From: PVC group bacterium | Lineage (GTDB): Bacteria > Auribacterota > Erginobacteria > Erginobacterales > Erginobacteraceae | Direction: 5' to 3' | DNA: 14,016 nucleotides | Assembly: GCA_043804695.1 (NCBI GenBank) | Contig: JAZDIV010000013.1 | Location: 1 to 14,016 of the forward strand | Shown: in pieces, positions 1 through 13,957 of the stretch | Position numbering within the stretch: the stretch's first letter is position 1 | How the letters are laid out: each line of letters begins with the position of its first letter | Notes under the pieces: model-generated | What the model was told of the DNA's origin: nothing | Seen by the model: only the letters and a program-made list of their open reading frames with translations | The model's database searches: none | Position numbers and translations under genes: made by a program

Positions 1-46
1 AACCCGATTTATGCCTGCCTGCCGGCAGGCAGGCATAAATCGGGTT
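1..46. repeat. Perfect 46-bp palindrome (REP-like hairpin) with CCTGCCTGCCGGCAGGCAGG core
   Basis: AACCCGATTTATGCCTGCCTGCCGGCAGGCAGGCATAAATCGGGTT equals its own reverse complement. It starts at base 1, so it may extend beyond the window. Confidence 0.9.
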
Positions 47-62
47 AAGCCGGATAAAAAAG

Positions 63-92
63 TTGTATTTGCAACAATTATCTTTATATGAT
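63..92 (+). promoter_or_regulatory. Putative sigma70-type promoter for the motor operon
   Basis: TTGTAT (63-68), 18-nt spacer, TATGAT (87-92), in an AT-rich patch upstream of the first plus-strand gene. Motif match only. Confidence 0.35.
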
Positions 93-281
93 AGACACTG
101 ACCATAACGGTGCCTCCGTTTCGGTGACCGGCTGCTTCGCAATTTTACTGCTATTATTTTTTTCTTTGAAAAAATAATTAATGGGGGCGATCCATCCGTA
201 TGTCCATGGGGAATATGCCGGCGGGGGCGTGAAATACCTTTGGGGGCGGTGCCCCCATTAAATCATCGTTATCGAAGCAAC

Positions 282-310
282 AGCCCCCCGATTGAATCAG
301 TCGGGGGGCT
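282..310. other. GC-rich stem-loop in the 5' leader
   Basis: AGCCCCCCGA (282-291) pairs perfectly with TCGGGGGGCT (301-310) and can extend by 3 more pairs. No U-tract follows on the plus strand, so it is not called a terminator. Confidence 0.6.
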
Positions 311-376
311 CGGATAAATGACGAGCAAAGCAGCTAATGTACAACTCTCCCTCGGGAATTGTGGAGGCTTATTCAA

Positions 377-1225
377 ATGGTTAAATCATTCTTTACCCCT
401 GTTTCTCTTCTCCTGATCTTTCTTTTCGTCTCTTCCATCCTGTGTGCGGAGACGGCTGAACTGGCCGACCGGCAGGGGCTGGAAAGTGTCTGGAAACGAT
501 CGGGGAGGACCACGGGGGTGATCGACTACCCCTACAGCCCGCAGCCCGGCATTTACGGCGGGAAAGATGTCCGGCAGCTGGAAAACCGGGGATACATCTT
601 TATCAATCCCCGAACGGAGGAGTTCGCCGCCCGCCGCCCGGGCCGCCGGGCCGAGGAGGCGCCGGCCGCCCCCGTCGAGGCCGACTGCGCGGAGATCCGG
701 AAAGCTCTCGAGGACGAGGTGGTCCGGTCCACGCGGCTCCTGGAAGAGCAGCAGACATCTGCGGAAGACCTCCGCCAACTCAGCCAGAAAGCCGATGACC
801 AGGCGCTGAAGATCGAGGCCCTGGAGTTTGAAATCACCCAATTCGAGGAGCAGGCCGCGGCATCCGCCGGCGTGGCCGGCGTGGAGGGCGTGGTCGGCGG
901 CGGAATCGCGGGCGGCGGACCGGAGGTCGAGGAGACCGGCACCTACCTGGTCGAGAAAGACGACAACCTCTGGACTATCGCCGGCAAACCCGGAATTTAC
1001 AACGACCCCTACCGCTGGCTCCTTCTCTACCACGCCAACCGGGACCAGATCTTCGAGCCGGACCTCATCTATCCCGGCATGGTCCTGCTCGTTCCCCGCT
1101 ACCGGGGGATGGAGCGGCCGCCGAGCGCTCCGGCCGCAGAAGAACCTCCGGCCGCAGAAGAATCTCCGGTGGCAGAAAAGCCTCCGGCGGGGGCGGAAGA
1201 CGCTGAAAACGAGCAAGGAGACTAA
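377..1225 (+). CDS. Secreted protein with coiled coil and LysM peptidoglycan-binding domain
   Basis: ATG 377 preferred over TTG 359 because GGAGG lies at 363-367. N-terminal hydrophobic signal (FTPVSLLLIFLFVSSILCA), heptad-like helix (EIRKALEDEVV...EITQFEEQ), LysM motif YLVEKDDNLWTIA...LYHANRDQIFEPDLIYPGMVLLVP (about 941-1096), acidic Pro/Ala tail. Confidence 0.9.
   Translation: MVKSFFTPVSLLLIFLFVSSILCAETAELADRQGLESVWKRSGRTTGVIDYPYSPQPGIYGGKDVRQLENRGYIFINPRTEEFAARRPGRRAEEAPAAPVEADCAEIRKALEDEVVRSTRLLEEQQTSAEDLRQLSQKADDQALKIEALEFEITQFEEQAAASAGVAGVEGVVGGGIAGGGPEVEETGTYLVEKDDNLWTIAGKPGIYNDPYRWLLLYHANRDQIFEPDLIYPGMVLLVPRYRGMERPPSAPAAEEPPAAEESPVAEKPPAGAEDAENEQGD
1130..1201 (+). repeat. Four degenerate 18-bp in-frame tandem repeats (PAAEEP/PAAEES/PVAEKP/PAGAED)
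   Basis: CCGGCCGCAGAAGAACCT, CCGGCCGCAGAAGAATCT, CCGGTGGCAGAAAAGCCT, CCGGCGGGGGCGGAAGAC in the LysM-protein tail. Confidence 0.8.
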
Positions 1226-3349
1226 ATGGGAAAGACGGCTTCAATCTTCCCGGTCGGCCCCATCAGAAACGCTGGCCGGGCTGGCGCGGCGCTGCTGGTC
1301 CTGTTCTCCTTTTCGCCCGCTCATTCCCAGCCTCTCCAGCGGAGCGATGCGGCCCAGATCCAGGCCGACCTGGAGTCCTCCCTCCAGGACAAGCTTGACA
1401 CGCTGATCGGGCCCCGGAGGAGCATCGTCAACGTCAATGTCACCCTGATCGATCAGTTTGCCGGCCGGGACGCGCAGGCGGCCCGGGCGCTGGAGCGTCA
1501 CCCGGGCATCCGGGTGAAGGTTCCCGACGAGCAGGCGGCAATCAGCAGCGCGAACCGGGGAGATATCTCCAGCCTGCATATTATTATCGACGCCGACGAT
1601 ACCCTGCCGGAGGAGGATCTTGGCGCGGCGCCCGAGTACAACGGGAGAATCCGGGAGGCCGTTTCCCGATGGTCCCGGCTCAATCCGGCCCGGGGGGACA
1701 CGCTCAAGGTCAATCCGATGGAATGGGGAGATCACGCCCCCCCCTCCGCCGCCCAGCAGAACTATGTCCTTTACTCCATCCTGGCCCTGGTGGCGCTTCT
1801 GATCCTGATCGCCGCCATCTACTTCCCGATGCGGAAGCTGAAGGGCACGGCGCCGGCAGCGGCGATGGCGGGAGGCGCCGGGGAAACGGGCGCGCTCGCG
1901 GTCGGCGGAGCCGCGGCCCTCTCGGAAGAGGACCGCCGGAGTGAGAGGAAATCGGAGATGGAAGCGATGCGGGACATGCTCTCCGGGGTCGGAAGCACCG
2001 GCGATGCAACCGAAACCACCCTGACCGCGATCAGGGAACTGATGGAGCAGCAGCTGGCCGGCGGGGCCCGGAACGACACCGGGCTGCTGGAAGAGATCCG
2101 CGATCTGCTCGGGAACCCGCCGCAGGAATCCGACGCCCTCCTCACCGAGATGAGAGACACTCTCTCGGACATGCTCGATGAGCAGAGAAAAATCGCCGCC
2201 CGGGCCGGCATCGCCGCCGGCGCTCCGGGAGCGGCGGCCGCCGCGGCCGCGGCGGCGGGACCGGCAGGCGGTCCGACGGGAGAAGGCGGCGTCGACGATG
2301 CCATGGGGGCCGAGATCGTGGAAGCCCTGGAGACCCTGGAAGAGCTGATGTCCCAGCAGCTGGAGAAAACCCCCGACAAGGAAGGGATCGACCAGCCGTT
2401 CAAGTACCTCAAGTCCACCGACCCGGAGGACATCATTCTCCTGATCAGCGACGAGGAGCCGAAACTGGCGGCGGCGGTTCTTTCCCAGATTGATCCGAAA
2501 ACCGCGGCGGCGGTCTTTGAGGCGCTGGAGGACAACAAGCAGTTCGAGCTGGCCCGGGCCATGACGCAGCTCACCGAAGAAGAAGACATGGCGGAAGAGA
2601 TCAAGGACTTCCTGGAACGGAAGCTGAAGATCGTCCGTCTTCACAAGGACTATCAGCCGGTCACGGGGGTCCGGGTCCTGGCCGACATTCTCAGCACCAG
2701 CCGCTACGCGGTCGCCCGGGTGATGCTGGATAAGATGGAAGGCAAGAACCCGGCGATGGCGGCCGAGGTCCGGAAACGGATGTTCCTCTTCGAGGACATT
2801 CAGACCCTGCAGGACAAGGATGTCGAAATCATCATCCACAACCTCAGCCCGGAACTCCTGGCCTACGCGCTGACCGATACCGACGAGGAGACCCGGGCCA
2901 AGTTCTTGAAGAACATGACCGAGAAGGCCCGGGAGATGGTCCGGGAAGACATGGAATCGGTCAAGAAAGTGCAGCTCGAGGAGGAGGGGAAGGAACTTCC
3001 CTTCAACCAGGCTCTCCTCGGCGTCGACCAGAACATCATCGACGAAATCTTCCGGACGGTGGACCGGACCACCCTGAAAATGGCGCTCCGGGGAGCCTCC
3101 GAACAGGTGCAGGAGAAGTTTTTCAGCGGCCTGACCGAACGCGCGGTCGCCATGCTGAGAGAGGACCTGGAGGTGATGGGCGGCATCTCCCGGGACCGGG
3201 CGGATGAAGCCCAGGAAGAGATCATGAACATCCTCCGCCAGCTGAGCAGCAAGAACCTGTCGGCCCAGCATGAAATAATCGCCACCATCCGGAAACTCGA
3301 ACACGAGGGACAGATCACGGTCGCCCGTTTCCGGGAAGAGACGGTATAA
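1226..3349 (+). CDS. fliG: FliF-like ring domain / TM / FliG middle and duplicated C-terminal domain fusion protein (putative one-piece rotor)
   Basis: AAGGAG RBS; ATG directly follows the upstream TAA. Signal-peptide-like aa 1-34. FliF_C/RBM3-like aa ~45-167 (LESSLQDKLDTLIGPRRSIVNVNVTL...ISSLHIIID...IREAVSRWSRLNPARGDTLKVNPMEW). TM aa 180-200. FliG_M-like from aa 391 (PFKYLKSTDPEDIILLISDEEPKLAAAVLSQIDP). MFLFED (MFxF hinge) at aa 519. Torque-helix-like NMTEKAREMVRED and GLTERAVAMLRED. Terminal AQHEIIATIRKLEHEGQI. The FliG part is confident; the FliF-like part is moderately confident. Confidence 0.85.
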   Translation: MGKTASIFPVGPIRNAGRAGAALLVLFSFSPAHSQPLQRSDAAQIQADLESSLQDKLDTLIGPRRSIVNVNVTLIDQFAGRDAQAARALERHPGIRVKVPDEQAAISSANRGDISSLHIIIDADDTLPEEDLGAAPEYNGRIREAVSRWSRLNPARGDTLKVNPMEWGDHAPPSAAQQNYVLYSILALVALLILIAAIYFPMRKLKGTAPAAAMAGGAGETGALAVGGAAALSEEDRRSERKSEMEAMRDMLSGVGSTGDATETTLTAIRELMEQQLAGGARNDTGLLEEIRDLLGNPPQESDALLTEMRDTLSDMLDEQRKIAARAGIAAGAPGAAAAAAAAAGPAGGPTGEGGVDDAMGAEIVEALETLEELMSQQLEKTPDKEGIDQPFKYLKSTDPEDIILLISDEEPKLAAAVLSQIDPKTAAAVFEALEDNKQFELARAMTQLTEEEDMAEEIKDFLERKLKIVRLHKDYQPVTGVRVLADILSTSRYAVARVMLDKMEGKNPAMAAEVRKRMFLFEDIQTLQDKDVEIIIHNLSPELLAYALTDTDEETRAKFLKNMTEKAREMVREDMESVKKVQLEEEGKELPFNQALLGVDQNIIDEIFRTVDRTTLKMALRGASEQVQEKFFSGLTERAVAMLREDLEVMGGISRDRADEAQEEIMNILRQLSSKNLSAQHEIIATIRKLEHEGQITVARFREETV

Positions 3350-3350
3350 T

Positions 3351-3557
3351 ATGATCAAATTGTCCAGGCTGAACGGGCAGGAGCTGGTCGTCAACGCCGA
3401 GATGATCGAGAAGATCGAAGCCAAGCCCGACACCATCATCACCCTCACCACCGGAGATCAGTACATCGTCCGGGACACGGTGGATGAGATCATCGACAAG
3501 GTGACCCGGTATAAACGGGAGATCAACCTCCCCAGCAAGGATACAACAACTGGATAA
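3351..3557 (+). CDS. flbD: FlbD/SwrD family small flagellar-motor protein
   Basis: MIKLSRLNGQELVVNAEMIEKIEAKPDTIITLTTGDQYIVRDTVDEIIDKV matches the FlbD pattern (MIxLTRLNG...NxxxIExIExxPDTxIxL..G..xxV.E). It sits in its usual position directly upstream of motA. Confidence 0.9.
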   Translation: MIKLSRLNGQELVVNAEMIEKIEAKPDTIITLTTGDQYIVRDTVDEIIDKVTRYKREINLPSKDTTTG

Positions 3558-3563
3558 GGAATT

Positions 3564-4316
3564 ATGCGCCTCAGCACCATCATCGGTTTTATCATCGGCG
3601 GCTGCGTCATCTTCTTCTCCATTTACCTCCGCGGAGCGGAGATGGTCAAGGCCTTCGTTAACTACCCTTCGATGATCATCGTCTTTGGGGGGACGACAGC
3701 CGCCATCCTGATCAACTTCAGCTTCCGCCAGATTCTCAGCGGACTGAAGGCTTTTCGCTACACCCTGGTGGGAAGCATCATCGACCCGGAAGCGGTCATC
3801 AACCTGATCGTGGAGATGGCGGTCAAGGCCCGGAAGGAAGGTTTCATGTCCATCCGCAACCTCTCCACCCGGGGCCGTTACCCGCTGCTGGATATCGGGG
3901 TCGATCTGGTTGCCGACGGGACCGACCCGGGGGTCACCCGGGGCATCCTGGAAACGGTCTCCGATTACCTGCAGATGAAGATCGGCGCCGACGAGCGGAT
4001 CTGGCGGGATGTCGGGGTGTATGCCCCTCTCTACGGGATGGTGGGGACGCTGATCGGGCTGATCATGCTTTTAAGAACGCTGACCGACCCCCAGACCATC
4101 GCCCCCAACATGTCGATCGCCCTGGTAACCACCTTCTACGGGCTCATCATGGCCGGCTTGATCTGCATGCCGGTGGCGGGGAAGATCCATGTCTACAACA
4201 CCAACATGGCCCTGGCCCGGGAGATCATCATCGAAGGGATCGCCTCGATCCAGGCCGGGGACAACTCCCAGATCGTCCGGGAAAAACTCCGGGCCTATCT
4301 GGCCGGGCGGCAGTAG
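3564..4316 (+). CDS. motA: Stator A subunit, MotA/PomA/MotP family
   Basis: Four hydrophobic segments and motifs PSMIIVFGGT, ARKEG, LVADGTD, APLYGMVGTLIGLI, ALVTTFYG, EIIIEGIASIQAGDN...EKL. TAAGGA RBS upstream. Confidence 0.95.
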   Translation: MRLSTIIGFIIGGCVIFFSIYLRGAEMVKAFVNYPSMIIVFGGTTAAILINFSFRQILSGLKAFRYTLVGSIIDPEAVINLIVEMAVKARKEGFMSIRNLSTRGRYPLLDIGVDLVADGTDPGVTRGILETVSDYLQMKIGADERIWRDVGVYAPLYGMVGTLIGLIMLLRTLTDPQTIAPNMSIALVTTFYGLIMAGLICMPVAGKIHVYNTNMALAREIIIEGIASIQAGDNSQIVREKLRAYLAGRQ

Positions 4317-4343
4317 TCTTATTTTCCCGGAGGAAAAATAAGA
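4317..4343. repeat. 27-bp palindromic repeat, copy 1
   Basis: TCTTATTTTCCCGGAGGAAAAATAAGA, one mismatch to the copy at 11582-11608. Begins at the base after the motA stop codon. Confidence 0.9.
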
Positions 4344-4424
4344 ACTATTCCATCGCAGCCTTCTGACCGGGCGGAGATGAGTCAGCTCCCGATCGTTGCC
4401 TTCGAATGACAGGAAAGTATCCCC

Positions 4425-5240
4425 ATGGCCGACGACACCGACCTGACCCCTCAGGTCGAGCATGAACGGATCGCCCCCGAGACGGGGAGCGGCAGCATCG
4501 AGGGCGATTGGCCGCCCTACTGGATGGTCACCTACTCCGATATGGTGACCAACCTGATGACCTTCTTCGTCCTCTGGTACGCCCTGACCACGGCGGGCAT
4601 CGACCCCAGGATTATCAAAATTCGTACGGACGATTCGGTCATTATCCGGGGAATAGCAGAAAAAACCAACCTCGATCGAGTCACCGAGGAGGAGCTGCGG
4701 ATCCTGCGCCAGTTCCAGCGGCTCTCCCGGGATCAGCAGCGGATCGTTCTGGCCGAGATGCGGGCCCTCCGGATCAAGGCGGAAGAGGTGATGGAGTTCA
4801 TCCGGCAGGGACGGATGGAGAACGAGGTCGAGATGAAGGTGACGGCGGAAGACATCGTGATCATCCCCACCGCGCCCCTCGTTTTCCGGGAAGGGAGCGC
4901 CGACATCAGGGAATCCTTCTACCCGGTCCTGGACAAGATCGCCTGGCTGCTGAAGGAAACCGGGGCGTCGGTCCGGATCGAGGGACATACCGACGCCACC
5001 CCCATCCACCCCCGCCACCGGCAGAGGTTCCCGACCAACTGGGATCTCTCCGCCGCCCGGGCGATCTCGGTCGCCCGTTACCTGCTCGACGCCGGGGAGA
5101 TCCCCCCGGAGAGAATCGCCGCCGCGGCCTACGGCCCCTCCCGGCCGAAGTTCTCCAACGACGATCCGGACCTGATGCCCCGCAACCGCCGGGTCGAGTT
5201 TCACATCTTCATCAGCTCCGAATCGATCAGCAAGAAGTAG
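4425..5240 (+). CDS. motB: Stator B subunit MotB/PomB, paralogue 1 (TM Asp and OmpA-like PG-binding domain)
   Basis: WMVTYSDMVTNLMTFFVLWY with conserved Asp39. C-terminal IEGHTD...NWDLSAARA...AAYG...P...NRRVEF. Confidence 0.93.
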   Translation: MADDTDLTPQVEHERIAPETGSGSIEGDWPPYWMVTYSDMVTNLMTFFVLWYALTTAGIDPRIIKIRTDDSVIIRGIAEKTNLDRVTEEELRILRQFQRLSRDQQRIVLAEMRALRIKAEEVMEFIRQGRMENEVEMKVTAEDIVIIPTAPLVFREGSADIRESFYPVLDKIAWLLKETGASVRIEGHTDATPIHPRHRQRFPTNWDLSAARAISVARYLLDAGEIPPERIAAAAYGPSRPKFSNDDPDLMPRNRRVEFHIFISSESISKK

Positions 5241-5250
5241 CTATACCATC

Positions 5251-6084
5251 ATGGCCCATCGGATACCAAAGTCGGCAGAGGATACCGGGAAAGCGGAGTG
5301 GCCGCCGGAGTGGATGACCACCTACTCCGACATGGCCACCCTCCTGATGACCTTCTTCATCATCCTCTCCTGCATGCTCGCCCTCAACATCGACATCACC
5401 TGGGTGTCGGGACAGAAAATGATCTCGCTGGTTCCCGAGGAGATCCAGGACACGACCGACATCGAGCTGTCCCGGGAAGAGAAAGACCTCCTGAAAAAGA
5501 TCCGGGAGCTGAAGCAGCAGCAGATGATGGAGCTGGCCAAGATTAACGAGATGCAGCGGATGGCAAAAGAGGTCCAGCAGTACATCATCGACGCCAACCT
5601 GAGCAGCTTTGTCCGGGTCGAGGTCAGCAAGTGGAAGCTGAAGATCGTCCCGGTCGCCCCCTTCCTTTTCCGGCCGGGCAGCGCCGCTCTCAAGGCGGAG
5701 GGGAAGACCTTTCTCACGGCCCTCTCGAAATTTTTCCTCTACAGCCCGACCGCCCAGGTCCGGATAACGGGGCACACCGACGATGTCCCGATCAAAACCC
5801 CGCGCTTCCCGTCCAACTGGGAGCTGAGCTGCGCCCGGGCCACGGTCGTGATGCGCTACCTGACCGATGAATGCGGCCTTGACCCCCAGACCCTGAGCGC
5901 GGTCGGCTACGGGCCCTATCAACCGGTCATGTCCAACGCCACCCCGGAGGGCCGGGCAAAAAACCGGCGGGTAGAGATTGAAATCATCCAGCGTCCGGGA
6001 TTACCGGTTCAATTGCCCGAATCCGGCGAAACCGGGGTTATCGACGCGGAGGGCAGTGCCAAGGCGAAAAATTCGGAGATCTGA
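5251..6084 (+). CDS. motB: Stator B subunit MotB/PomB, paralogue 2 (TM Asp and OmpA-like PG-binding domain)
   Basis: WMTTYSDMATLLMTFFIILS with conserved Asp27. C-terminal ITGHTD...NWELSCARA...VGYG...P...NRRVEI. Confidence 0.93.
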   Translation: MAHRIPKSAEDTGKAEWPPEWMTTYSDMATLLMTFFIILSCMLALNIDITWVSGQKMISLVPEEIQDTTDIELSREEKDLLKKIRELKQQQMMELAKINEMQRMAKEVQQYIIDANLSSFVRVEVSKWKLKIVPVAPFLFRPGSAALKAEGKTFLTALSKFFLYSPTAQVRITGHTDDVPIKTPRFPSNWELSCARATVVMRYLTDECGLDPQTLSAVGYGPYQPVMSNATPEGRAKNRRVEIEIIQRPGLPVQLPESGETGVIDAEGSAKAKNSEI

Positions 6085-6239
6085 TTCTGCTGCCGGTGCA
6101 CTTTCGCTGCCTGCTGGAGCAGCCTCCCCAGGACCAGACCGAGGATGATCCCTGCGACCGCGGCGCCCAGCAAAACTGCGCCGATCTGCCAGCGGGGGAG
6201 ATGGTTCCTCCTTCTGCTTTCACGCAGATCGGAACGCAT
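6009..6239 (-). CDS. Possible small single-pass membrane protein (76 aa)
   Basis: ATG at 6239 gives MRSDLRESRRRNHLPRWQIGAVLLGAAVAGIILGLVLGRLLQQ...: a basic N-terminus and a clean hydrophobic helix. Fills the gap after the radical SAM gene but overlaps the motB2 3' end by 76 nt; RBS is weak. Confidence 0.4.
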   Translation of the reverse strand: MRSDLRESRRRNHLPRWQIGAVLLGAAVAGIILGLVLGRLLQQAAKVHRQQNQISEFFALALPSASITPVSPDSGN

Positions 6240-6300
6240 CCTGACCTTGACCCATCTCTTCGGCGCCCGGCCGGGATTGCCTGATTCCCGCCTGCGAAGA

Positions 6301-7434
6301 TCACCCGGCTGCATTTTTTCTCCTGTGGAAACGGGCGGCCCGGGCCCATTTAATCTTCAGATACTCCCGGATGATCCGGGGATAAACCCGGAAATTAAAG
6401 AGGATATTCAGCGTCAGAAAACATTCATACGTGCAGAAACAGCGTGACTCTTTGATCGCCCGGCGGGCCCGGGCGGCCGCGGGACCGGACCAGAGGCGCT
6501 TGAAGTCATATCCGGCATCCCTCAGATTTCCCATCTTCAGATCATCGTGGAGTTCGCAGGGCAACAGATCTCCGTTGGCAAAGAGCGCCGCCCCCAGAAT
6601 ACCCGCATAACAGGGAAGAATCATCCGGTTCTCCCTGATGACCCGGGCGATGATCTGATGCCGGATAATCCGTTTCGCGTTGATCAGGTCCGCGAAGGGG
6701 AAGCGGTCATACCCGCTTAACATCCGTTCCTTGATCCCCCTCTCCATCGCCCGGGCGTATTTCTCGTAGTTGTCGATATTAAAAAATTTCGCCGCCGGCT
6801 CCATCGGTTTCCCCCGGCAGAGAAGCGTAAAAAGGTTGTCCGCCTCGGTCTCTTCGACGAAGTAGCGGTACATGCTCATCAGTTTGGCATCGTTGAACGA
6901 GGAGACCGTGGTCTCGACTGTCGCGGAAAAATGAGGATAGGCCTTTTCCAGCCGCTTCAATTCATGGAAGGTGGCCATCGCTTTTTCAAATAAGCCGGGG
7001 ACGCCCCTGATCTCGTCATGATCCGCCCCGATCCCGTCAATCGACACGTCAACCATCAGGTCCATCCCCGGGCAGGTGTCCATTATTTTCCGCACGGTTT
7101 CCACCACCCGTTCCGTCAGGGAACCGTTGGTCGGAATGCCGACATTGAGAATATGGTTGTTCCGATGAAATATCCGGATGATTTCCGGCAGATCCTGCCT
7201 CAAAAAGGGCTCCCCTCCCGTCGGCAACAGGAAAAGAAAGTCATCCATCCCGGCGGAGATTTTATCGATCTCTTCCAGCGTCAGCTCATCGCGGCCCGGA
7301 TGGATCCCCGCCAGCAGGCAGTGCTTGCACCAGGCATTGCAGCGCTCGGTGACAAAAAACACCAGGTAAAGAGGAGAGGCATGCCGTTTAGAGAAAACCC
7401 GGGAGGCGTATTTAAGATACCGCAGCGCAGACAT
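6301..7434 (-). CDS. Radical SAM protein with C-terminal SPASM/twitch-like Cys cluster
   Basis: CNAWCKHC (CxxxCxxC), TGGEPFLRQD, TNG, VSIDG...HDEIRG; C-terminal CYAG...GDLLPCE...MGNL...CFCTYEC. GAGG RBS upstream. Confidence 0.92.
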   Translation of the reverse strand: MSALRYLKYASRVFSKRHASPLYLVFFVTERCNAWCKHCLLAGIHPGRDELTLEEIDKISAGMDDFLFLLPTGGEPFLRQDLPEIIRIFHRNNHILNVGIPTNGSLTERVVETVRKIMDTCPGMDLMVDVSIDGIGADHDEIRGVPGLFEKAMATFHELKRLEKAYPHFSATVETTVSSFNDAKLMSMYRYFVEETEADNLFTLLCRGKPMEPAAKFFNIDNYEKYARAMERGIKERMLSGYDRFPFADLINAKRIIRHQIIARVIRENRMILPCYAGILGAALFANGDLLPCELHDDLKMGNLRDAGYDFKRLWSGPAAARARRAIKESRCFCTYECFLTLNILFNFRVYPRIIREYLKIKWARAARFHRRKNAAG

Positions 7435-7482
7435 AGATAAACTTTTACCTCACTTTTGAATAAATGAATCGGGACAATAAAA

Positions 7483-7599
7483 GGTAACGGTTAGGGTAAC
7501 GATGCCCGTATCGGTAAGGGTAACGGTAACGGGCGCCGCGGCGAGCTCACGTAACCGTAACCGGCAGACGAAACGGGCCTCGTTACCGTAACCGTTACC
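7483..7599. repeat. Intergenic inverted-repeat element built from GGTAAC-type hexamers
   Basis: 7483-7513 matches the reverse complement of 7569-7599 at 28/31 positions. Further GGTAAC/CGTAAC units lie inside, with a central CGCCGCGGCG palindrome (7534-7543). Confidence 0.8.
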
Positions 7600-7681
7600 C
7601 AGTTGCGCCGCAGGCGCTAACTTGTAATATTATACCATGTCCAATGAATATAACCAGTTCATCCCTTCCCGGGAATACCTT

Positions 7682-8821
7682 TCACTCTTTTTTCCGCCGG
7701 GTCTTCTCCGCGGCCCGATAGAGTCGTTGATAGGCGCCGACCATGGCCCCGATATCATACCCGGCCGCCACCTCATTCTGTGCCGTCCGGCCCAGCCGGT
7801 CAGCGAAATCCCGATCGTCCAGCACCCGCTCAATAGCTTGGGCCAAAGCCGATCCGTCCCGGGGAGGGACCAGAAGCCCGGAAAAGCCGTCCCGGACCAG
7901 GCCGGAGCTCCCCCCCACCGCCGTCGCCACCACCGCCCGCTTGAGAGCCATCGCCTCCAGGAGGGCAATGGAGAGGCCTTCCCGGATGGAACTGAGGACA
8001 AACACATCGGAGAGGCCCACAATCTCCGCCGCGTCGGGGCGGGAGCCGAGCAGGAACACCCGTCCATCAAGCCCGCGGGCCCGGATGGTCTCGCCCAGTT
8101 CCCCGCGCAGTTCCCCCTCTCCCAGGAGGAGGAAGTACACGTCCTGCCGGTGCCCGAGGATCTTTTCGGCGGCCTCCAGCAGGTAGCGGTGCCCTTTTTT
8201 CGGCGTCAGCGCCGCCGCCGTGGCCACCACTCGGTGTCCGGGGAGAACCCCGAGCCCGGCCAGTTTCCCGGCCGGGTCGGCGACTTTCCGCAAACGCTCG
8301 AGGTTGAGACCGTTTGCCACCACCCGGACTTTCCGCGCCGGAATGCCGCAGCGGGAGACGAGCGAACGGCGGACGGGTTCTGAAACCGCGATCACCTGAT
8401 CGGTGCGGAAAGCGAGAATATAATCGAGCAGCCGCCGGGGGGCGTTTTTCCATTCGGACATGTTATGTTCGGTCCGGAAAAGAAGACACCGGGGGCAGAG
8501 GACAGCCCCGGCCCAACCCCAGAGATGGCTTGAGAAGAGATGGGTGTGAATGATCCGGACCCGGTTATCCCGGATGATCCCGAGCAGCCGCCGGAAGCTC
8601 TTGAGATCGAATGGCGACCGCCGGCCCAGCACAAAGACCGGGACGCCGATCGCCCGCAGCATGTCCGCGACACCGCCTCCCCGGGTCAGGGCGCAGACCA
8701 GAAACCGGAACTTCTCCCGGTCCCCCCGCTGGATGAGATCGTAGACCACCATCTCGGCGCCTTCCCGGGGGAGGCTGTCTATGACATGGAGAACGGTAAT
8801 TTTCCGCTTATTCCGCATCAT
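7682..8821 (-). CDS. Glycosyltransferase family 4 (GT-B)
   Basis: VLHVIDSLPREGAE, IHTH, VANG, KGHRYLLEA, FVLSSIREGLSIALLEAMA (EX7E), ATAVGG. Start could be 8821 or 8818. Confidence 0.93.
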   Translation of the reverse strand: MMRNKRKITVLHVIDSLPREGAEMVVYDLIQRGDREKFRFLVCALTRGGGVADMLRAIGVPVFVLGRRSPFDLKSFRRLLGIIRDNRVRIIHTHLFSSHLWGWAGAVLCPRCLLFRTEHNMSEWKNAPRRLLDYILAFRTDQVIAVSEPVRRSLVSRCGIPARKVRVVANGLNLERLRKVADPAGKLAGLGVLPGHRVVATAAALTPKKGHRYLLEAAEKILGHRQDVYFLLLGEGELRGELGETIRARGLDGRVFLLGSRPDAAEIVGLSDVFVLSSIREGLSIALLEAMALKRAVVATAVGGSSGLVRDGFSGLLVPPRDGSALAQAIERVLDDRDFADRLGRTAQNEVAAGYDIGAMVGAYQRLYRAAEKTRRKKE

Positions 8822-8853
8822 AAATCACAAATTCGTTACCATATGACAGATAA

Positions 8854-9669
8854 CTAAAGCCCCTCTCCCACCGCCTTCTGCCAGAGATGATGCCAGAGGT
8901 CGAAAGCCCCTTCTATTTTCATCCGGAAATCCCCCAGATCATCATCCCGCGAGACCTCGGTCCGCCGGAGACGGAAGAGATCGTAGGGACGGCGGTTGGT
9001 CCCCGGGCGGACGGTGACCGCGCCCCGGTATCCGGCCGTCCTGACCCGGGCGGCCAGGTCCGGCGTGTGCTTGCCCCGGGGGTAGGAGAACCACTCCGGC
9101 CTCACCCCCAGCCGTTCTCCGATGCGGGAGGCGCTCCCCGCTATCTCGCGCTCCGCTTCCGGCGCCGGCAAACCGGTGAGCTCCCGGTGCGACAGCGAAT
9201 GAGACCCGACCGCGATGCCGTATCCCCGCATTTCGTCCAGCATTTCCCAGGAGAGCGGGCGGGATTGCTTAGGCCCGGTCCGATAACGTTCCAGAGCGAC
9301 CGGGCCGTCGATAAAACCGGGAACGACGAAGACCAGCGCCGGCAGCCGCCGCTGCTTCAGAACCGGGAAGGCCGTGTCATAGAAATCCAGATAGCCGTCA
9401 TCAAAGGTTAAGACCAGCACGGTCTTCCCTTCATCCCTCCCGGCCAGGGCCCCCGACAGCGTCTCCACCCGGTAACCCTCCCCGAGCAGGAAGTCCATCT
9501 GTCTCGCGAACTCGCCGGGGGAGACGGAGAGCCGGTCCCCGGGGCAGTCGGCCACCCGGTGGTACATCAGGATCCGGACCCCTCCTCCCCGGACCAGGCG
9601 GCTGATCCGGGCCGCCGGGGCGGATAACACCGGGATGACCTTTCGCAGCGTGCGGCTACCCTTTCCCAT
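8854..9669 (-). CDS. Polysaccharide deacetylase (CE4/NodB-like)
   Basis: ILMYHRV, LTFDDGY, GSHSLSH, FSYPRG motifs. ATG 9669 (MGKGSRT...) overlaps the upstream GT end by 14 nt and is preferred over the track start at 9765. Confidence 0.9.
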   Translation of the reverse strand: MGKGSRTLRKVIPVLSAPAARISRLVRGGGVRILMYHRVADCPGDRLSVSPGEFARQMDFLLGEGYRVETLSGALAGRDEGKTVLVLTFDDGYLDFYDTAFPVLKQRRLPALVFVVPGFIDGPVALERYRTGPKQSRPLSWEMLDEMRGYGIAVGSHSLSHRELTGLPAPEAEREIAGSASRIGERLGVRPEWFSYPRGKHTPDLAARVRTAGYRGAVTVRPGTNRRPYDLFRLRRTEVSRDDDLGDFRMKIEGAFDLWHHLWQKAVGEGL

Positions 9670-10795
9670 GGCTGATGGTGTCCCCCGCCCATCCGGCCGG
9701 GCGCCCGGCGGCCAGAGAATACAGTTCCTCGACTTTCCGGCACATCCTGGAAACGGTGAAATCACGCGTCACCCGGCGGCAGGCCGCCTTCCCCAGCACC
9801 GGGAGAAGGGCCGGGCTCCCCAGCAATTCCGCCAGACGAGCGGTGAGGGCGGCGGGATCCCCCGGCGGCACCAGAAAACCGTTCCCGCCGTTATCGATCA
9901 CCTCCGGGTTGGCGCCGACCGTGGTAGCAATCACCGCCCTCCCGGCCGCCATCGCCTCCAGGAGGGCGTTGGAGAACCCCTCGGCGAGAGAGGGAAGAAC
10001 AAAGATATGCATCTCCCGTAAAAACGAATCCGGGTCTACAATCTCTCCGCGGAAGGTAAGCCGACCCTGTAAACGGTGCCTCCGCCCCAGTTCCTGCAGC
10101 CGGTCGTGATACCGCCGGTCGAGGACCCGGCCCCCGATATGCAGTTCCCAGGGCGGGTCCACGGGCAACCGGCCGGCCGCCTCCAGCAGGTACTCCAGCC
10201 CCTTGACCGGACGGATGTTGCCCAGAGTCCCGATCTTTATTTTTTCTTCCGGGACCGGCGGACGGACGGCCCTGCCGCCGGGGGGGGGCTCTATCCCGTT
10301 GTACACGAGCACGATCCTGCTTGCGGAGGCCTTCTCCCGGCGGAGCAGGTAGGATACCACCTCGCCGGAATTGGCGGTGATCCTGAACGTGAGGGGGTTG
10401 ACCGCCCGGTGAGCCAGGATATGACGCCCCTTTTTCCAGAAACCGGTATCTCGCCGGCTGGTGATCACCGTGGTACCGGTGAGAAAGCCGGCGAGAGGAG
10501 AAATAATATTCGCCGCGAAGAGGTACGAATGCACCACGGAGACACGGTGACGGCGGATCGCGCCGCTCACCCCCCCGATCGCCCGGGCGAAACGCGGCCC
10601 CATGATATCCCGGAGGGCAAGCGCTTCAACCGGGACCCCTTTCCCTTCCAGTTCCTTCCCCAGGGGTCCTTTCTCCAGCAGGCAGCAGACAACCGGCTGA
10701 AAACGGTCCGGATCCAGGCCGGAGATCAGCTGCCAAAGGTGCCTCTGGGCACCCGCCCGGACCATCTTGTCGATAACGTAGAGGATTCTGATCAT
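9656..10795 (-). CDS. Glycosyltransferase family 4 (GT-B)
   Basis: ILYVIDKMVRAGAQ, VYNGI, KGLEYLLEA, FVLPSLAEGFSNALLEAMAAG (EX7E), ATTVGANPEVI. Confidence 0.93.
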   Translation of the reverse strand: MIRILYVIDKMVRAGAQRHLWQLISGLDPDRFQPVVCCLLEKGPLGKELEGKGVPVEALALRDIMGPRFARAIGGVSGAIRRHRVSVVHSYLFAANIISPLAGFLTGTTVITSRRDTGFWKKGRHILAHRAVNPLTFRITANSGEVVSYLLRREKASASRIVLVYNGIEPPPGGRAVRPPVPEEKIKIGTLGNIRPVKGLEYLLEAAGRLPVDPPWELHIGGRVLDRRYHDRLQELGRRHRLQGRLTFRGEIVDPDSFLREMHIFVLPSLAEGFSNALLEAMAAGRAVIATTVGANPEVIDNGGNGFLVPPGDPAALTARLAELLGSPALLPVLGKAACRRVTRDFTVSRMCRKVEELYSLAAGRPAGWAGDTISHGKG

Positions 10796-10820
10796 TATAA
10801 ATTAGCTCGCTGCGCTCGCA
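10796..10820 (-). repeat. 25-bp motif directly upstream of a GT start codon, copy A
   Basis: Minus strand TGCGAGCGCAGCGAGCTAATTTATA followed by ATG; 23/25 identical to 13957-13981. Confidence 0.8.
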
Positions 10821-10833
10821 AATTTATTATCCA

Positions 10834-11475
10834 TCACTCCATCACCCCATCATCGCCTGGTTGCATATCCTGCGGGGAAACCCTGTTGTCCCGCAGGCGG
10901 TATTCCCTCCCGCACCGGGAGCAGACCGCCTCTTCATTTTCGAAGGTCAACCGTGTCCCGCAGGCGCAGACCCAGCCCCTGATCACGGCCGGATTGCCGT
11001 AGACCAGGGCATAATCGGGGACATCCCGGGTGACCACGGAACCGGCGCCGACAAAAGCGGAACGGCCGATCGTGTGCCCACAGACAATGGTGGCGTTGGC
11101 CCCGATGCTGGCCGATCTCCCGACCAGTGTCTTTTTATAAAACTCGCTCCCCCGCTGGGGAAATTCGCTCCGGGGGTTCAGGATATTGATAAAAACCATC
11201 GAGGGGCCGCAGAAGACATAGTCTTCCAGTTCCACGCCCTCATAGACCGAAACATTGTTCTGAATTTTTACCTGATCTCCGATCCGGACATTCCCGGCGA
11301 TATTGACGTTCTGCCCGAGGGAGCAGTTCTTCCCGATCCGAGCGCCGGATTGGATATGACTGAAATGCCAGATCTTCGTCCCCGCCCCAATGACCGCTCC
11401 CTCGTCTACATAACTGGATTCGTGGACGAAGTAATCCCCCTGTTGAGAAAAATTAGAGCTGTCTTTTTTTATCAT
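10834..11475 (-). CDS. wbpD: WbpD/WlbB-like sugar N-acetyltransferase (left-handed beta-helix) with C-terminal Cys-pair ribbon
   Basis: VHESSYVDEGAVIGAGTKIWHFSHI, VKIQNNVSVYEGVELEDYVFCGPSMVF, SIGANATIVCG, GNPA..GWVCACG...CSRCG. GGAG RBS upstream. Confidence 0.85.
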   Translation of the reverse strand: MIKKDSSNFSQQGDYFVHESSYVDEGAVIGAGTKIWHFSHIQSGARIGKNCSLGQNVNIAGNVRIGDQVKIQNNVSVYEGVELEDYVFCGPSMVFINILNPRSEFPQRGSEFYKKTLVGRSASIGANATIVCGHTIGRSAFVGAGSVVTRDVPDYALVYGNPAVIRGWVCACGTRLTFENEEAVCSRCGREYRLRDNRVSPQDMQPGDDGVME

Positions 11476-11581
11476 CGATCTTTCTCCATTTATAAATGAG
11501 CTTCCTTAGATCGCATATTTATATTTTGAACACTGAATTCACTTAAAATTTACCTGTGAAGTTATTATACTGCTTGCACAC

Positions 11582-11608
11582 TCTTATTTTTCCGGAGGAA
11601 AAATAAGA
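11582..11608. repeat. 27-bp palindromic repeat, copy 2 (perfect 12-bp stem, GGA loop)
   Basis: TCTTATTTTTCC-GGA-GGAAAAATAAGA, abutting the stop codon (11609-11611) of the dehydrogenase gene. Confidence 0.92.
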
Positions 11609-12613
11609 TTATAATTCTACCGTAACTCCTCCTTCCTCCAGTGACCTCTGGGCCGCCTCCAGAACCCGTACCACCGCGCAGCCGTTTTCACCGTCGGTCA
11701 GGGGACGCCGCCGCTCCTTCACGCACCGGATAAAATGTCCGGTCTCCGCCTGCAGGGGTTCCCCGGCCTTCACCCAGGGGATCTGCACGTCTCCGTAGCG
11801 AAGATTCAGATACTCCCCGTAGGTGTCATAGACGAGGTTTTCGGGCACTCCCTTATCGTAAATCCTGATCGGCTCGCTGCTGTCCATGTCATCGAAGACC
11901 ATCATTTTCCTGCTCCCGACGATGGTCACCCGCCTGATTTTATGGGGGTCCAGCCAGCTGACATGAAGATGGGCCATTACCCGGTCGGGGAAGGTTATGG
12001 TGATGAAATCCACATCGGCCACATTGCTCTGAATATATGACTCTCCCCGGGCGGCCACCGATCGGGGTTCCCGGTCGATAAGATAGAGGGCGACCGAGAC
12101 ATCGTGGGGGGCGAAGGTCCAGAGAGCGTTCTCGCTCCGCCGGATCTTCCCCAGGTTGACCCGCTGGCTGTACAGATAATAGAGATCCCCGATCTTGCCG
12201 CTGCGGAGCTCGTCTTTTAGTTTTATTACCCCGGGATGATACAGCAGGAGGTGTCCGACCATCAGGATCAATTCCCGTTTCTCCGCCTGTTCACAGAGTT
12301 TCCGGCACTCGTCGGCGGTCAGCGCCATCGGTTTCTCCACGAAAACGTCTTTACCGGCCTCCAGGCAGTCTCGGGCAATCCGGTAGTGGGTGCTCCCCGG
12401 CGTGGCCACCACCACCGCCCGGATGGAGGAGTCCTGCAAAATCCGACCGTAGTCGGCGGTAACCGCCATCTCGGGATACTTCGCCCGGGCGGCGGCAAGC
12501 CGGGATTCCACCAGATCGGCGGCGGTGACGACCTCCGCCCCGGGCTGTTCCTGAAAATTCCTCAGCAAATTCTTCCCCCACCCTCCGACACCGATAATTC
12601 CTAATTTTATCAT
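11609..12613 (-). CDS. Gfo/Idh/MocA family NAD-dependent oxidoreductase (WbpB/WlbA-like nucleotide-sugar dehydrogenase)
   Basis: Rossmann motif GIIGVGGWG, VATP..TH, VFVEKPMA, MVGH, APHD. GAGGG RBS fits ATG 12613 (alternative GTG 12616). Adjacent to the WbpD-like gene. Confidence 0.9.
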   Translation of the reverse strand: MIKLGIIGVGGWGKNLLRNFQEQPGAEVVTAADLVESRLAAARAKYPEMAVTADYGRILQDSSIRAVVVATPGSTHYRIARDCLEAGKDVFVEKPMALTADECRKLCEQAEKRELILMVGHLLLYHPGVIKLKDELRSGKIGDLYYLYSQRVNLGKIRRSENALWTFAPHDVSVALYLIDREPRSVAARGESYIQSNVADVDFITITFPDRVMAHLHVSWLDPHKIRRVTIVGSRKMMVFDDMDSSEPIRIYDKGVPENLVYDTYGEYLNLRYGDVQIPWVKAGEPLQAETGHFIRCVKERRRPLTDGENGCAVVRVLEAAQRSLEEGGVTVEL

Positions 12614-12688
12614 CACTCCCTCTCTTATCCCGGATTATTCATGAAAATTAATTCTACGGACAATAATACACATAATATCAGATTAAAA

Positions 12689-12713
12689 TTATTTTTCCGG
12701 AGGAAAAATAAGA
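12689..12713. repeat. 27-bp palindromic repeat, copy 3 (25 bp retained), inside the 3' end of a GT gene
   Basis: TTATTTTTCCGGAGGAAAAATAAGA; on the minus strand it encodes LIFPPEK and the TAA stop. Confidence 0.9.
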
Positions 12714-13957
12714 CTGGATGAGAAAAGATCCGCGATCTGCCGGCTGGTCACCCGGATGTCCCACAACTGTTCTATCTTCTTCCTGCCCGACCGGCCGTAC
12801 CTTCTCAACAATTCAGGATTACCACTGACCCTCTTAACCAGATCGGCGATCGCGCGGGGATCTTTCTCGGCGATCGCGAACCCGCAGAATGGGTTATCGA
12901 TCAGCTCCGGCAATGAGGGGAGCGGAGTGCAGGCGACCGGGACGCCGACGGCAAGCGCTTCCAAGAGCACATTGGGTATCCCCCAGTGGATCCGCAGGAC
13001 CGCGGGCAGGATAAAAATATCCGCCCACCGGTAATGCCGCGGCATCTCTTCCTGCGCCTGGTAGCCGGTGAAGGTGATCCGGCTTTCCAGGTTCTTTTCC
13101 CTAACGATCGTTTTCAGCCGCTCTTCCAGATACCCGCCGCCGATAATCCGGCAGTGAAAGTCGAACTTTTCCTCCGCCAGCAGAGCGCAGGCGTCGATCA
13201 GGTACTCGAACCCCTTGCATTCGAACAGACTCCCCGCGGAGAGGATATGGAAGGCCCCGTCCCCGGGAGCCTCCCCGCCGGCCGGCCTCCCTGCCCTCCC
13301 CGGGGCGGCAATTTTTCCCTTCAGACGATAGTTCTCCAGATCGATCCCGTGGTAGATGATCCTGATCTTATCCGGGCTGGTCTCCGGGGCAAGCCCCAGA
13401 AGGTGCCGCTTGTTGTCGGCGGTGCAGGTAATCACAAAAGCCGCCCGGCGGAGCTTCTCGCCCAGGCCGACGGTCTTGACGTGGATATCATGGGCATGCC
13501 CGGTGAAACTGAACGGGATCCGGTTGATCCGGGAAATACAGAAGGCCGTCAGGGCCGGATAGGTGGCCCACTGGCCGTGAACGTGCTCGATGCCCCGCTT
13601 CCGGCAGACGGCGGCGAAGTACACCGCCCGGGGGATACAGGCGAGAGATTTGCAGAGGAACTCGGCATCCCGCCAGTTCATCCTGATCACGGAAAAGACC
13701 ATCGCCAGGTACTCCCGGGGCCGGGTAAAAAAAAGGCGACAGTTTTCCCCCAGCACGTTCCGATCCAGGAGAAGCCCGGCATAGATCGCCCTCTCCGCCA
13801 GTCCGTTGCCGACGGCATGGCGCACGGGCTCCCGGCTGCTCTTCTTCAGGGAAAAGACCACCAGGTCCAGCAGCCGCTCGAGGGCGAGGAGCTCCCGGAG
13901 AATAAAAGCCTCGTCGTAGCAGGGGAACCGGGAGAAGATCATGGCGACTTTCTTCAT
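12689..13957 (-). CDS. Glycosyltransferase family 4 (WcaL-like)
   Basis: FPCYDEAFILREL, HVHGQWA, PFSFTGHAHDI, IYHGID, KGFEYLIDA, GIPNVLLEALAVG, LPELI. Confidence 0.9.
   Translation of the reverse strand: MKKVAMIFSRFPCYDEAFILRELLALERLLDLVVFSLKKSSREPVRHAVGNGLAERAIYAGLLLDRNVLGENCRLFFTRPREYLAMVFSVIRMNWRDAEFLCKSLACIPRAVYFAAVCRKRGIEHVHGQWATYPALTAFCISRINRIPFSFTGHAHDIHVKTVGLGEKLRRAAFVITCTADNKRHLLGLAPETSPDKIRIIYHGIDLENYRLKGKIAAPGRAGRPAGGEAPGDGAFHILSAGSLFECKGFEYLIDACALLAEEKFDFHCRIIGGGYLEERLKTIVREKNLESRITFTGYQAQEEMPRHYRWADIFILPAVLRIHWGIPNVLLEALAVGVPVACTPLPSLPELIDNPFCGFAIAEKDPRAIADLVKRVSGNPELLRRYGRSGRKKIEQLWDIRVTSRQIADLFSSSLIFPPEK

Follow-up and report, generated by a model that had tools for sequence, protein, structure and literature searches.

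Introduction

To our knowledge, neither FliG nor the FliF ring is known outside flagella, a chlamydial remnant being the one printed exception that we found. Here we describe a contig of 14,016 bases (JAZDIV010000013.1; the entire contig is called the window below) from a PVC (Planctomycetes-Verrucomicrobia-Chlamydiae) group bacterium of the order Erginobacterales, phylum Auribacterota, whose genome of 2.97 Mb is distributed over 155 contigs and is 88% complete. In this window, a single open reading frame (ORF) joins a domain homologous to the third ring-building motif (RBM3) of FliF to FliG, and it stands in one operon with genes for MotA and MotB, the subunits of the flagellar stator.

A natural fusion of this kind has been reported in Chlamydiaceae, where Bergeron (2016) recognised the ~330-aa FliF protein as a FliF-FliG_M fusion, citing engineered Salmonella fusions as well (PMC4768692). 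The two cases are alike in that a shortened FliF is naturally joined to FliG in a PVC-group bacterium regarded as non-flagellated. As far as the description in the consulted part of that paper goes, the chlamydial protein consists of an RBM2-like domain and a second RBM-like domain, two transmembrane (TM) segments and a FliG_M-like tail, and homologues of FlhA and FliI are present beside it, as is an injectisome; that part of the paper lists few flagellar genes and names no stator (PMC4768692). The window fusion, in contrast, has RBM3 only, continues with FliG_M and two FliG_C units, belongs to an operon with MotAB and FlbD, and is found in a genome where FlhA was not detected.

Engineered full-length FliF-FliG fusions have been made in Salmonella and Vibrio (PMC10941966, PMC6079021; PDB 8z4d/8z4g). 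They resemble the window protein in being single chains, and the consulted parts of these reports indicate that a single-chain FliF-FliG can form membrane rings (PMC10941966, PMC6079021). The Vibrio fusion chain 8z4d_1 was indeed matched both by the model of our N-terminal region and by our C-terminal sequence. The engineered proteins, as presented there, keep all FliF and FliG domains inside a complete flagellum, whereas the window fusion is natural and is truncated at the interface of the two partners.

Outside the flagellum, ion-driven motors of 5:2 stoichiometry are represented by ExbBD, TolQR, AglRQS, GldLM and ZorAB, according to the consulted sections of two recent sources (10.1101/2024.03.12.584617, PMC12505986). 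What they have in common with the present locus is a motor of the MotA/ExbB family with an apparently non-flagellar use. Their partners are of the TonB, TolA, GltG or GldM type, whereas the best PDB and NCBIfam matches of the window stator are flagellar MotA/PomA proteins and its presumed partner is FliG. We know of no non-flagellar 5:2 motor with a torque ring of FliG or a ring domain from FliF, and no description of a non-flagellar FliG/MotAB machine was found in the literature searched, supplements lying outside the search.

Compared to the rotor-stator core of the flagellum itself, the likeness extends to the RBM3 fold and TM2 of FliF, to FliG_M, ARM_C, the MFXF motif and the charged torque helix of FliG, to R90, P173 and P222 of MotA, to the plug, the Asp and the OmpA-like domain of MotB, and to the gene order flbD-motA-motB. 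The differences are that one polypeptide replaces two, that RBM1/RBM2 and FliG_N are missing and an insert of ~40 aa takes the place of the beta-collar, that the FliG_C subdomain is duplicated, and that the fusion operon has two MotBs per MotA; genes for FliM/N, export apparatus, rod, hook and filament were not found in the genome of the fusion among the families searched.

Results and Discussion

A single reading frame joins FliF RBM3 to FliG

The ORF at 1226..3349 (+) encodes a protein of 707 aa, to which translation, Pfam, alignment and comparison with homologues assign the layout RBM3-TM-linker-FliG(M, C, C'). The initial annotation had placed a FliF-FliG fusion at 1226..2395; this span is stop-free in translation, but it covers only the first 390 aa of the 707-aa ORF. 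As had been proposed, the linker runs in frame into the FliG domains: translation is uninterrupted, and Pfam detects FliG_M and FliG_C downstream, in the same ORF.

Homologues of the fusion (n = 26) were collected, 686-710 aa long and 55-79% identical to it, every frame being open. For the analyses below, 23 fusion homologues were aligned, and a 10-member family set was composed of the window protein and nine relatives from independent assemblies; alignment A2 is made of aa 1-204 of these ten proteins. An assembly chimera, or read-through of two adjacent genes, could in principle create such an ORF. We give this explanation a negligible chance, as the same unbroken architecture occurs in the 26 other full-length proteins, all from other assemblies, in 10 full-length loci of independent assemblies and in 13 genomes, and as the joint region itself (TM helix, RK, linker helices) is conserved in the alignment of homologues. 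Public reads from two sediment DNA runs contained 5-10% of the sequence words, as short pieces of relatives only, none of which spanned the joint between TM helix and FliG; among public RNA runs, none was listed as containing it. We conclude that the ORF is a natural fusion, made of FliF RBM3, a short insert for the beta-collar, one TM helix, a long linker, FliG_M and a duplicated FliG_C.

The periplasmic domain is homologous to FliF RBM3

The N-terminus of the protein (aa 1-34, 1226..1327, +) looks like a signal peptide, with a positive n-region, a hydrophobic core and, as read initially, an end in PAHS/Q. The hydrophobic stretch is 12-21 residues long across the ten family members, the residue at -1 is small in all 23 aligned sequences and the Gln at +1 (Gln35) is invariant; in the AlphaFold2 (AF2) model, a helix (12-28) lies within this segment. 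Judged by this n/h/c pattern and by the small residue at -1, the signal peptide is likely cleaved. The alternative, an uncleaved anchor resembling TM1 of FliF, is less probable.

The following ~135 residues (aa 35-170, 1328..1735, +) form the entire periplasmic part. They had been proposed to be an RBM3 domain from three motifs, LDTLIGPRRSIVNVNV (aa 57-72), ISSLHIIID (aa 114-122) and LNPARGDTLKVNPMEW (aa 152-167), all of which are present at these positions, the last one including a conserved RGD (aa 156-158). The motif columns are invariant or nearly so among the 23 aligned homologues, and they pair with the corresponding columns of FliF RBM3 in a profile-profile alignment; for these two reasons the motifs are not chance resemblances.

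Homology to RBM3 was found concordantly by four approaches: profile alignment (hhalign), order of the structural elements in the AF2 model, and structure comparison by Foldseek and by VIA-align. With hhalign, A2 was compared to 12 ordinary FliF proteins taken from flagellar loci, and a probability of 96.4 and an E value of 1.2e-9 were obtained, the full-length alignment giving the same result. Residues 34-200 of the query aligned on columns 233-454 of the 553 FliF columns, that is on RBM3 and TM2, with a large gap at the beta-collar. The AF2 model computed on A2 consists of a helix (39-61), a strand (68-75), a poorly defined insert, a second strand (116-124), a helix (141-150), a strand (159-165) and the TM helix (175-202); its mean predicted local distance difference test (pLDDT) score is 67.5, and 70-90 in the core blocks. 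Searching the PDB with Foldseek, as had been suggested at the outset, returned MS-ring/RBM3 chains of FliF in rows 1-17 and a FliF-YlxF integrative model in row 18 (E 3.3e-4 to 2.1e-2). Finally, the 14 best entries of VIA-align were all FliF, with Z scores of 10.4-12.2; in the top example, 7cg7_A (Z 12.2, root-mean-square deviation 3.8, 94 aligned residues), model residues 35-167 lie on residues 232-437 of Salmonella FliF.

The same RBM fold is also that of SpoIIIAG and of SctJ/PrgK/EscJ, and in SpoIIIAG too an insert is placed between strands 1 and 2. These proteins however scored 2-4 Z units below FliF RBM3 (the non-FliF folds reached 8.9 for an OsmC-like fold, 8.9 for PrgK D2, 8.2 for SpoIIIAG and 8.0 for EscJ), and the profile alignment favours FliF specifically, through TM2.

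Among the parts of FliF announced as absent, RBM1/RBM2 and the long beta-collar were indeed not found. Between the two strands, where ~38 aa had been counted, the model gives an insert of ~40 aa (aa 76-115). Most of the beta-collar is therefore missing, as seen from the size of this insert, from the large hhalign gap and from the model residues 35-167 spanning FliF 232-437. As for RBM1/RBM2, PF01514 has no match in the fusion (E<=0.01) nor anywhere in its own genome. Pfam detects nothing in the first 390 residues of the fusion; a whole-library profile search with A2 did reach ordinary FliFs, 3 of 48 proteins scanned carrying both PF01514 and PF08345. A tetramer prediction with four copies of aa 36-170 gave a median score of 0.41, to be compared to a mark of 0.42, and was not used as evidence.

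One TM helix and a long linker precede the FliG domains

A single TM helix was expected, and one was found (aa 178-202, 1757..1831, +), aligned with TM2 of FliF; the Kyte-Doolittle profile places it at aa 176-206 and the AF2 helix at 175-202. It is followed by a cytoplasmic linker of ~185 aa (aa 203-388, 1832..2389, +), delimited by alignment and by the hhalign limits. In the linker, a pattern L..I[RK][DE]L[LM] recurs in four or five amphipathic helices that are conserved, and the low-complexity runs between them are rich in Ala and Gly and vary in length. Neither a FliF C-terminal tail nor FliG_N was detectable in it by hhalign, whose alignments end at about aa 207 and resume at aa 388.

The FliG part carries a duplicated torque unit

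The FliG middle domain and ARM_C occupy aa 389-518 (2390..2779, +). Pfam recognises FliG_M at aa 400-468 with 43.4 bits (cut-off 25), and FliG_C at aa 503-586 and in a second stretch, with 142.3 bits (cut-off 23.3). An alignment by hhalign of the 23 family members with 14 ordinary FliGs yielded an E value of 5e-36, and the fold comparison also matched FliG. The absence of FliG_N, part of the original proposal, was borne out: the hhalign match begins at column 109 of the 340 FliG columns, and Pfam FliG_N gives only a sub-threshold score (19.1 bits), located inside the M domain. The FliG equivalog TIGR00207 of NCBIfam was not reached (160 bits, compared to a cut-off of 226.7). A tree of 34 rows, obtained by a quick method, places the fusion clade, which has a long branch, outside every ordinary FliG, among them four of flagellated Auribacterota.

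Searching PDB sequences with phmmer matched FliG_MC of T. maritima (1lkv, E 4.5e-33), aligned in two pieces that omit aa ~540-607; the omitted stretch is an additional copy of the torque-helix subdomain. The FliG_C region contains a tandem duplication, missed by the initial annotation: aa 545-582 and 617-654 are 37% identical to each other (E 5e-7). The first copy, with the MFXF motif in the form MFLF (aa 519-522), extends over aa 519-590 (2780..2995, +), as delimited by Pfam, self-comparison and phmmer; the second, more canonical copy covers aa 591-707 (2996..3349, +), and its last helix is repeated. This last repeat is a tandem one as well, at window positions 3185-3310 (aa ~654-695), made of AQEEIMNILRQLSS and AQHEIIATIRKLEHEGQITV; hhalign and phmmer place different copies of it on the canonical helix.

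Using E. coli FliG as a residue ruler, we examined the torque residues in 10 family members. In copy 1, the equivalents of R281, D288 and D289 are K/R, E and D in 10/10 (K, E, D in the window protein) and that of R297 is kept in 10/10, whereas K264 is not kept. In copy 2, the equivalents of K264, R281, D288 and D289 are R/K, R, E and D in 10/10 (R, R, E, D in the window protein), and an invariant Arg sits one position past the R297 column.

The fusion belongs to an operon with a stator

The fusion is the second gene of a tight operon of six genes, all on the + strand, coding for a LysM/coiled-coil protein, the fusion, FlbD, MotA and two MotBs, with gaps of 0, 1, 6, 108 and 10 nt. The first gene (377..1225, +; likely start ATG 377, the longest ORF starting at TTG 359) has a stop codon that abuts the start codon of the fusion. 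Its product, either secreted or anchored, starts with a hydrophobic segment, continues with a part resembling a coiled coil and ends in a LysM-like peptidoglycan-binding domain, the LysM assignment being sub-threshold (Pfam LysM 18.3 bits; NCBIfam LysM PRK11198 E 6e-9). FlbD (3351..3557, +), a SwrD-type small flagellar motor protein of 68 aa, was identified with PF06289 (94.3 bits) and is present in 11/11 related loci.

MotA (3564..4316, +) is a stator A subunit of the MotA/PomA type, 250 aa long with four TM-like segments, recognised by Pfam MotA_ExbB. MotB paralogue 1 (4425..5240, +) combines a plug, a TM segment bearing the conserved Asp and an OmpA-like domain that binds peptidoglycan; paralogue 2 (5251..6084, +) is 38% identical to it and has the same motifs, including the Asp, both having been assigned by Pfam and alignment. 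The Pfam models MotA_ExbB, MotB_plug and OmpA are all above their cut-offs, while the stator equivalog models of NCBIfam, PomA, MotP and MotA among them, all remain below theirs. MotA matches solved MotA/PomA chains of the PDB with E values of 1e-37 to 5e-41. The equivalents of E. coli R90, P173 and P222 are kept in 10/10 MotAs, and that of MotB D32 in both paralogues; judged from these residues, the stator looks functional. The two MotBs may share the one MotA as a heterodimer, or may make two kinds of stators.

The order LysM protein, fusion, FlbD, MotA, MotB is kept in 11/11 related loci as far as the contigs reach. The LysM protein lies directly upstream of the fusion in 10 of them, the eleventh contig beginning inside the fusion gene, and the second MotB is present in 9, the other two contigs ending within ~720 nt past MotB1. 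A scan of positions 1-6400 for promoters gave nothing convincing upstream of the operon; one terminator-like hairpin was found past motB2, at 6194-6211.

The operon is inherited without a flagellum

No export gate or rod was expected to accompany the fusion, and none was found: PF01514, FHIPEP, Flagellin_N, FliMN_C and Flg_bb_rod had no match in the genome that carries the fusion, while all five were detected in four flagellated controls. The only two FliG_C matches of this genome are both inside the fusion ORF. We then surveyed 79 genomes of the phylum, 14 of the order of the window and 65 others. The A2 profile was found in 13/14 genomes of the order, spanning four of its families, and in 0/65 elsewhere in the phylum. 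In the same 13 genomes, MotA adjoins the fusion and a full-length orthologue of the LysM protein is present. FHIPEP (FlhA), conversely, was found in 0/14 genomes of the order, eight of which are >=90% complete, and in 16/65 elsewhere. The remaining genome of the order, G024, of the same family as the window and 94% complete, is the sole one without the fusion; this MotA is missing from it too, as is a full-length LysM protein, which suggests loss of the module there as one unit.

This distribution agrees with what is described for the phylum, at least in the consulted part of the source: flagella are not encoded by the Auribacterota metagenome-assembled genomes of Ace Lake, of which Ca. Erginobacter occultus is one, but they are by Ca. 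Auribacter fodinae (PMC9324843). One of our related loci, L005, whose fusion is 63% identical to that of the window, bears the name Ca. Erginobacter occultus.

It could be argued that the locus belongs to an ordinary flagellum, whose remaining genes were missed in incomplete metagenome bins. The 155 contigs and 88% completeness of the own genome leave some room for this. We consider it highly improbable nevertheless, given that five of the six families searched in that genome gave zero matches and the sixth, FliG_C, matched only the fusion ORF, that FHIPEP is missing from the whole order and yet detectable in the controls and in 16 genomes elsewhere in the phylum, and that, without RBM1/2 and collar, the protein offers no seat for an export gate or rod.

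Could the fusion then be a decaying, functionless relic of an ancestral flagellum? Flagella do exist elsewhere in the phylum, as the FHIPEP counts indicate, and the fusion is devoid of most FliF parts and of FliG_N. Decay, however, is not what the sequences look like: frames are intact in 13 genomes of four families, homologues are 55-79% identical over their full length with invariant functional residues, the module disappeared as a whole from the one genome that lacks the fusion, and the domain duplication and the second MotB are innovations. A relic is, in our opinion, very unlikely, though somewhat less so than a flagellum overlooked.

A proposed rotor-stator machine with a single-chain rotor

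We propose that the fusion is probably the rotor subunit, in a single chain, of a flagellum-independent ring machine driven by MotAB. The domain homologies to FliF RBM3 and FliG, the shared operon of fusion, FlbD, MotA and MotBs, their co-inheritance, the functional residues that they have kept, the lack of matches for the flagellar families searched and the recurrence of the architecture in distant proteins were counted in favour of this rotor-stator reading.

The machine could work as follows. After export by Sec, RBM3 domains would assemble into a ring similar to the S-ring, at the periplasmic side of the inner membrane, and the FliG_M/ARM_C parts would chain into a second ring beneath it. 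MotA5B2 units, anchored in the peptidoglycan through OmpA-like domains, would turn with the flow of ions and push on the torque helices of FliG_C, such that the entire ring would turn in the membrane. Without FliM/FliN, there would be no switch complex. The LysM/coiled-coil protein, the only candidate for a periplasmic partner, would be bound to the cell wall.

Ring formation and rotation are both inferred, and several observations weigh against this proposal. Regarding the ring domain, Pfam YscJ_FliF_C (PF08345) was not found in the window protein even at E<=10, and in 4/10 family members it is sub-threshold (~96-146 of its 147 positions, 13-21 bits for a cut-off of 23.8); the A2 hidden Markov model, run against PDB sequences, found no FliF and only a chance TM match; and the two AF2 models are middling, with mean pLDDT values of 67.5 and 65.4, and come from 10-sequence alignments. 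Regarding the contacts of the rotor, the EHPQ motif by which FliG binds FliM has drifted, to EEPK in 9/10 members and EEAK in one. The equivalent of MotA E98, a known contact of FliG, lies at around aa 85-95 of the window MotA and is an Arg in 10/10, and an acidic residue follows this position in 7/9 relatives and not in the window protein. With an Arg at this position and basic residues at the FliG R281 equivalents, the usual pairing of charges would, on this alignment, not occur. No obvious load for the rotor was found among the operon proteins with Pfam and NCBIfam. Since the own genome is 88% complete, the case that it has no flagellar genes depends on what is seen across 14 genomes. Lastly, the link to polysaccharides considered below is one of neighbourhood only, the flanking operons being divergent or convergent and not co-transcribed with the motor genes.

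A conserved operon that retains rotor ring and stator alone, in bacteria where no other flagellar genes were found, implies both that a ring of FliF-RBM3 and FliG suffices to be useful with MotAB and that flagellar torque generation was redeployed. If the machine is indeed a rotary engine serving a surface process, as considered below, no earlier motor built on FliG would be known to have an output other than the flagellum. The fusion would then represent a natural minimal rotor, with no export gate, rod or switch, bearing on how a motor may function before, or apart from, a secretion system. A natural rotor made of one protein could also be of use for structural and single-molecule work, and as a test case for ideas on motor evolution.

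The operon lies in an exosortase/exopolysaccharide locus

Downstream of the operon, a convergent set of surface-polysaccharide genes (6301..13957, -; Pfam, NCBIfam) codes for a radical SAM/SPASM protein, three glycosyltransferases of family 4 (GT4), a polysaccharide deacetylase, a hexapeptide acetyltransferase and an enzyme resembling GFO/UDP-GlcNAc 3-dehydrogenases. Homologues of this set are downstream of the operon in 8/9 related loci that reach that far. The radical SAM/SPASM gene (6301-7434, -), between motB2 and the glycosyltransferases, was seen among related loci only in L006 and L010. One GT4 gene (12689-13957) had an NCBIfam match named EpsE, which is to a GT4 model and sub-threshold. 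The EpsE clutch of Bacillus is a GT2 protein, and a link to a clutch of the B. subtilis EpsE type was dropped.

Upstream, beyond the start of the window, a divergent gene set is common to seven related loci and was annotated in one, L003. It comprises there a metallophosphoesterase, a polysaccharide deacetylase, an exosortase (EpsH/XrtA-like), EpsI, a glycosylphosphotransferase priming exopolysaccharide (EPS) synthesis and two secreted proteins. The latter (344 and 494 aa; L003 4242-6840, -) are conserved, have no Pfam/NCBIfam family, and separate the motor operon from the exosortase genes; they have in common a repeated ending motif, ..PY[DT]N[PG][ED]I..[FW].V..I.V.

The position of the operon inside an exosortase/EPS locus points to a surface-polysaccharide or envelope process. 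On this basis, a more specific reading can be put forward tentatively, with somewhat less than even confidence: a self-contained rotary engine, in which a homo-oligomeric ring with FliF RBM3 outside and FliG inside would be spun by MotAB and would drive a surface process tied to exosortase/EPS biogenesis. The fusion operon may in that case mark a new step, powered by ions, in the biology of the envelope or of surface polysaccharides.

The same neighbourhood is compatible with a machine that does not rotate. The fusion could form a static membrane platform, as a ring or a non-ring cluster, with MotAB acting as a gated ion channel or mechanosensor, through which the control of EPS production would respond to the flow of ions or to load on the envelope. 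Stators and FliG have inputs into biofilm and EPS control in some flagellated bacteria. The exosortase/EPS surroundings in the relatives examined (exosortase set annotated in L003 only), the lack of a recognisable load-bearing output component in the operon and the drift at MotA E98 and FliG EHPQ would all fit such a platform. On the other hand, the torque residues are kept in both FliG_C copies in 10/10 members, and the RBM3 domain, which builds rings, is conserved. Control functions were not apparent either: no GGDEF, PilZ or kinase domain was found in the six operon proteins with Pfam and NCBIfam, and no riboswitch was found upstream with Rfam, on the window at gathering scores or on positions 1-450 at E<=1. 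Overall, we regard a static platform as unlikely, albeit the most serious of the alternatives to a rotor driven by MotAB.

At its very beginning the contig carries a perfect palindrome of 46 nt (window 1-46; aacccgatttatgcctgcctgcc/ggcaggcaggcataaatcgggtt), and ~330 nt of AT-richer non-coding DNA separate it from the first operon gene; Rfam gave chance-level matches only in this region.

Related fusions in other lineages

The whole-library profile search with A2 retrieved 83 proteins at E<=0.001. Of these, 48, picked mainly for their N-terminal match, were scanned with Pfam, the other 35 being outside the scan. In 40/48, FliG_M and/or FliG_C follow the RBM3-like match, in proteins of 372-667 aa, none of which has PF01514; 9 of these 40 distant fusions pass the cut-off of PF08345. 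The remaining 8 are the 3 ordinary FliFs mentioned above and 5 short proteins. The recurrence of the architecture in 40 of the 48 scanned proteins suggests a widespread family, of which the literature searched gave no description, and, should the fusion be a rotor, versions of this one-piece rotor would exist in several other phyla. As leads only, look-alike clusters with FliG_C, FliG_M and YscJ_FliF_C were retrieved from the ESM Atlas, and their commonest phyla are Bdellovibrionota, Elusimicrobiota, Cloacimonadota, Bacteroidota, Thermodesulfobacteriota, Pseudomonadota and Myxococcota. Among four distant fusions (P0031, P0035, P0056 and P0074), three have two FliG_C stretches, and P0074, 662 aa long, ends in tetratricopeptide (TPR) repeats.

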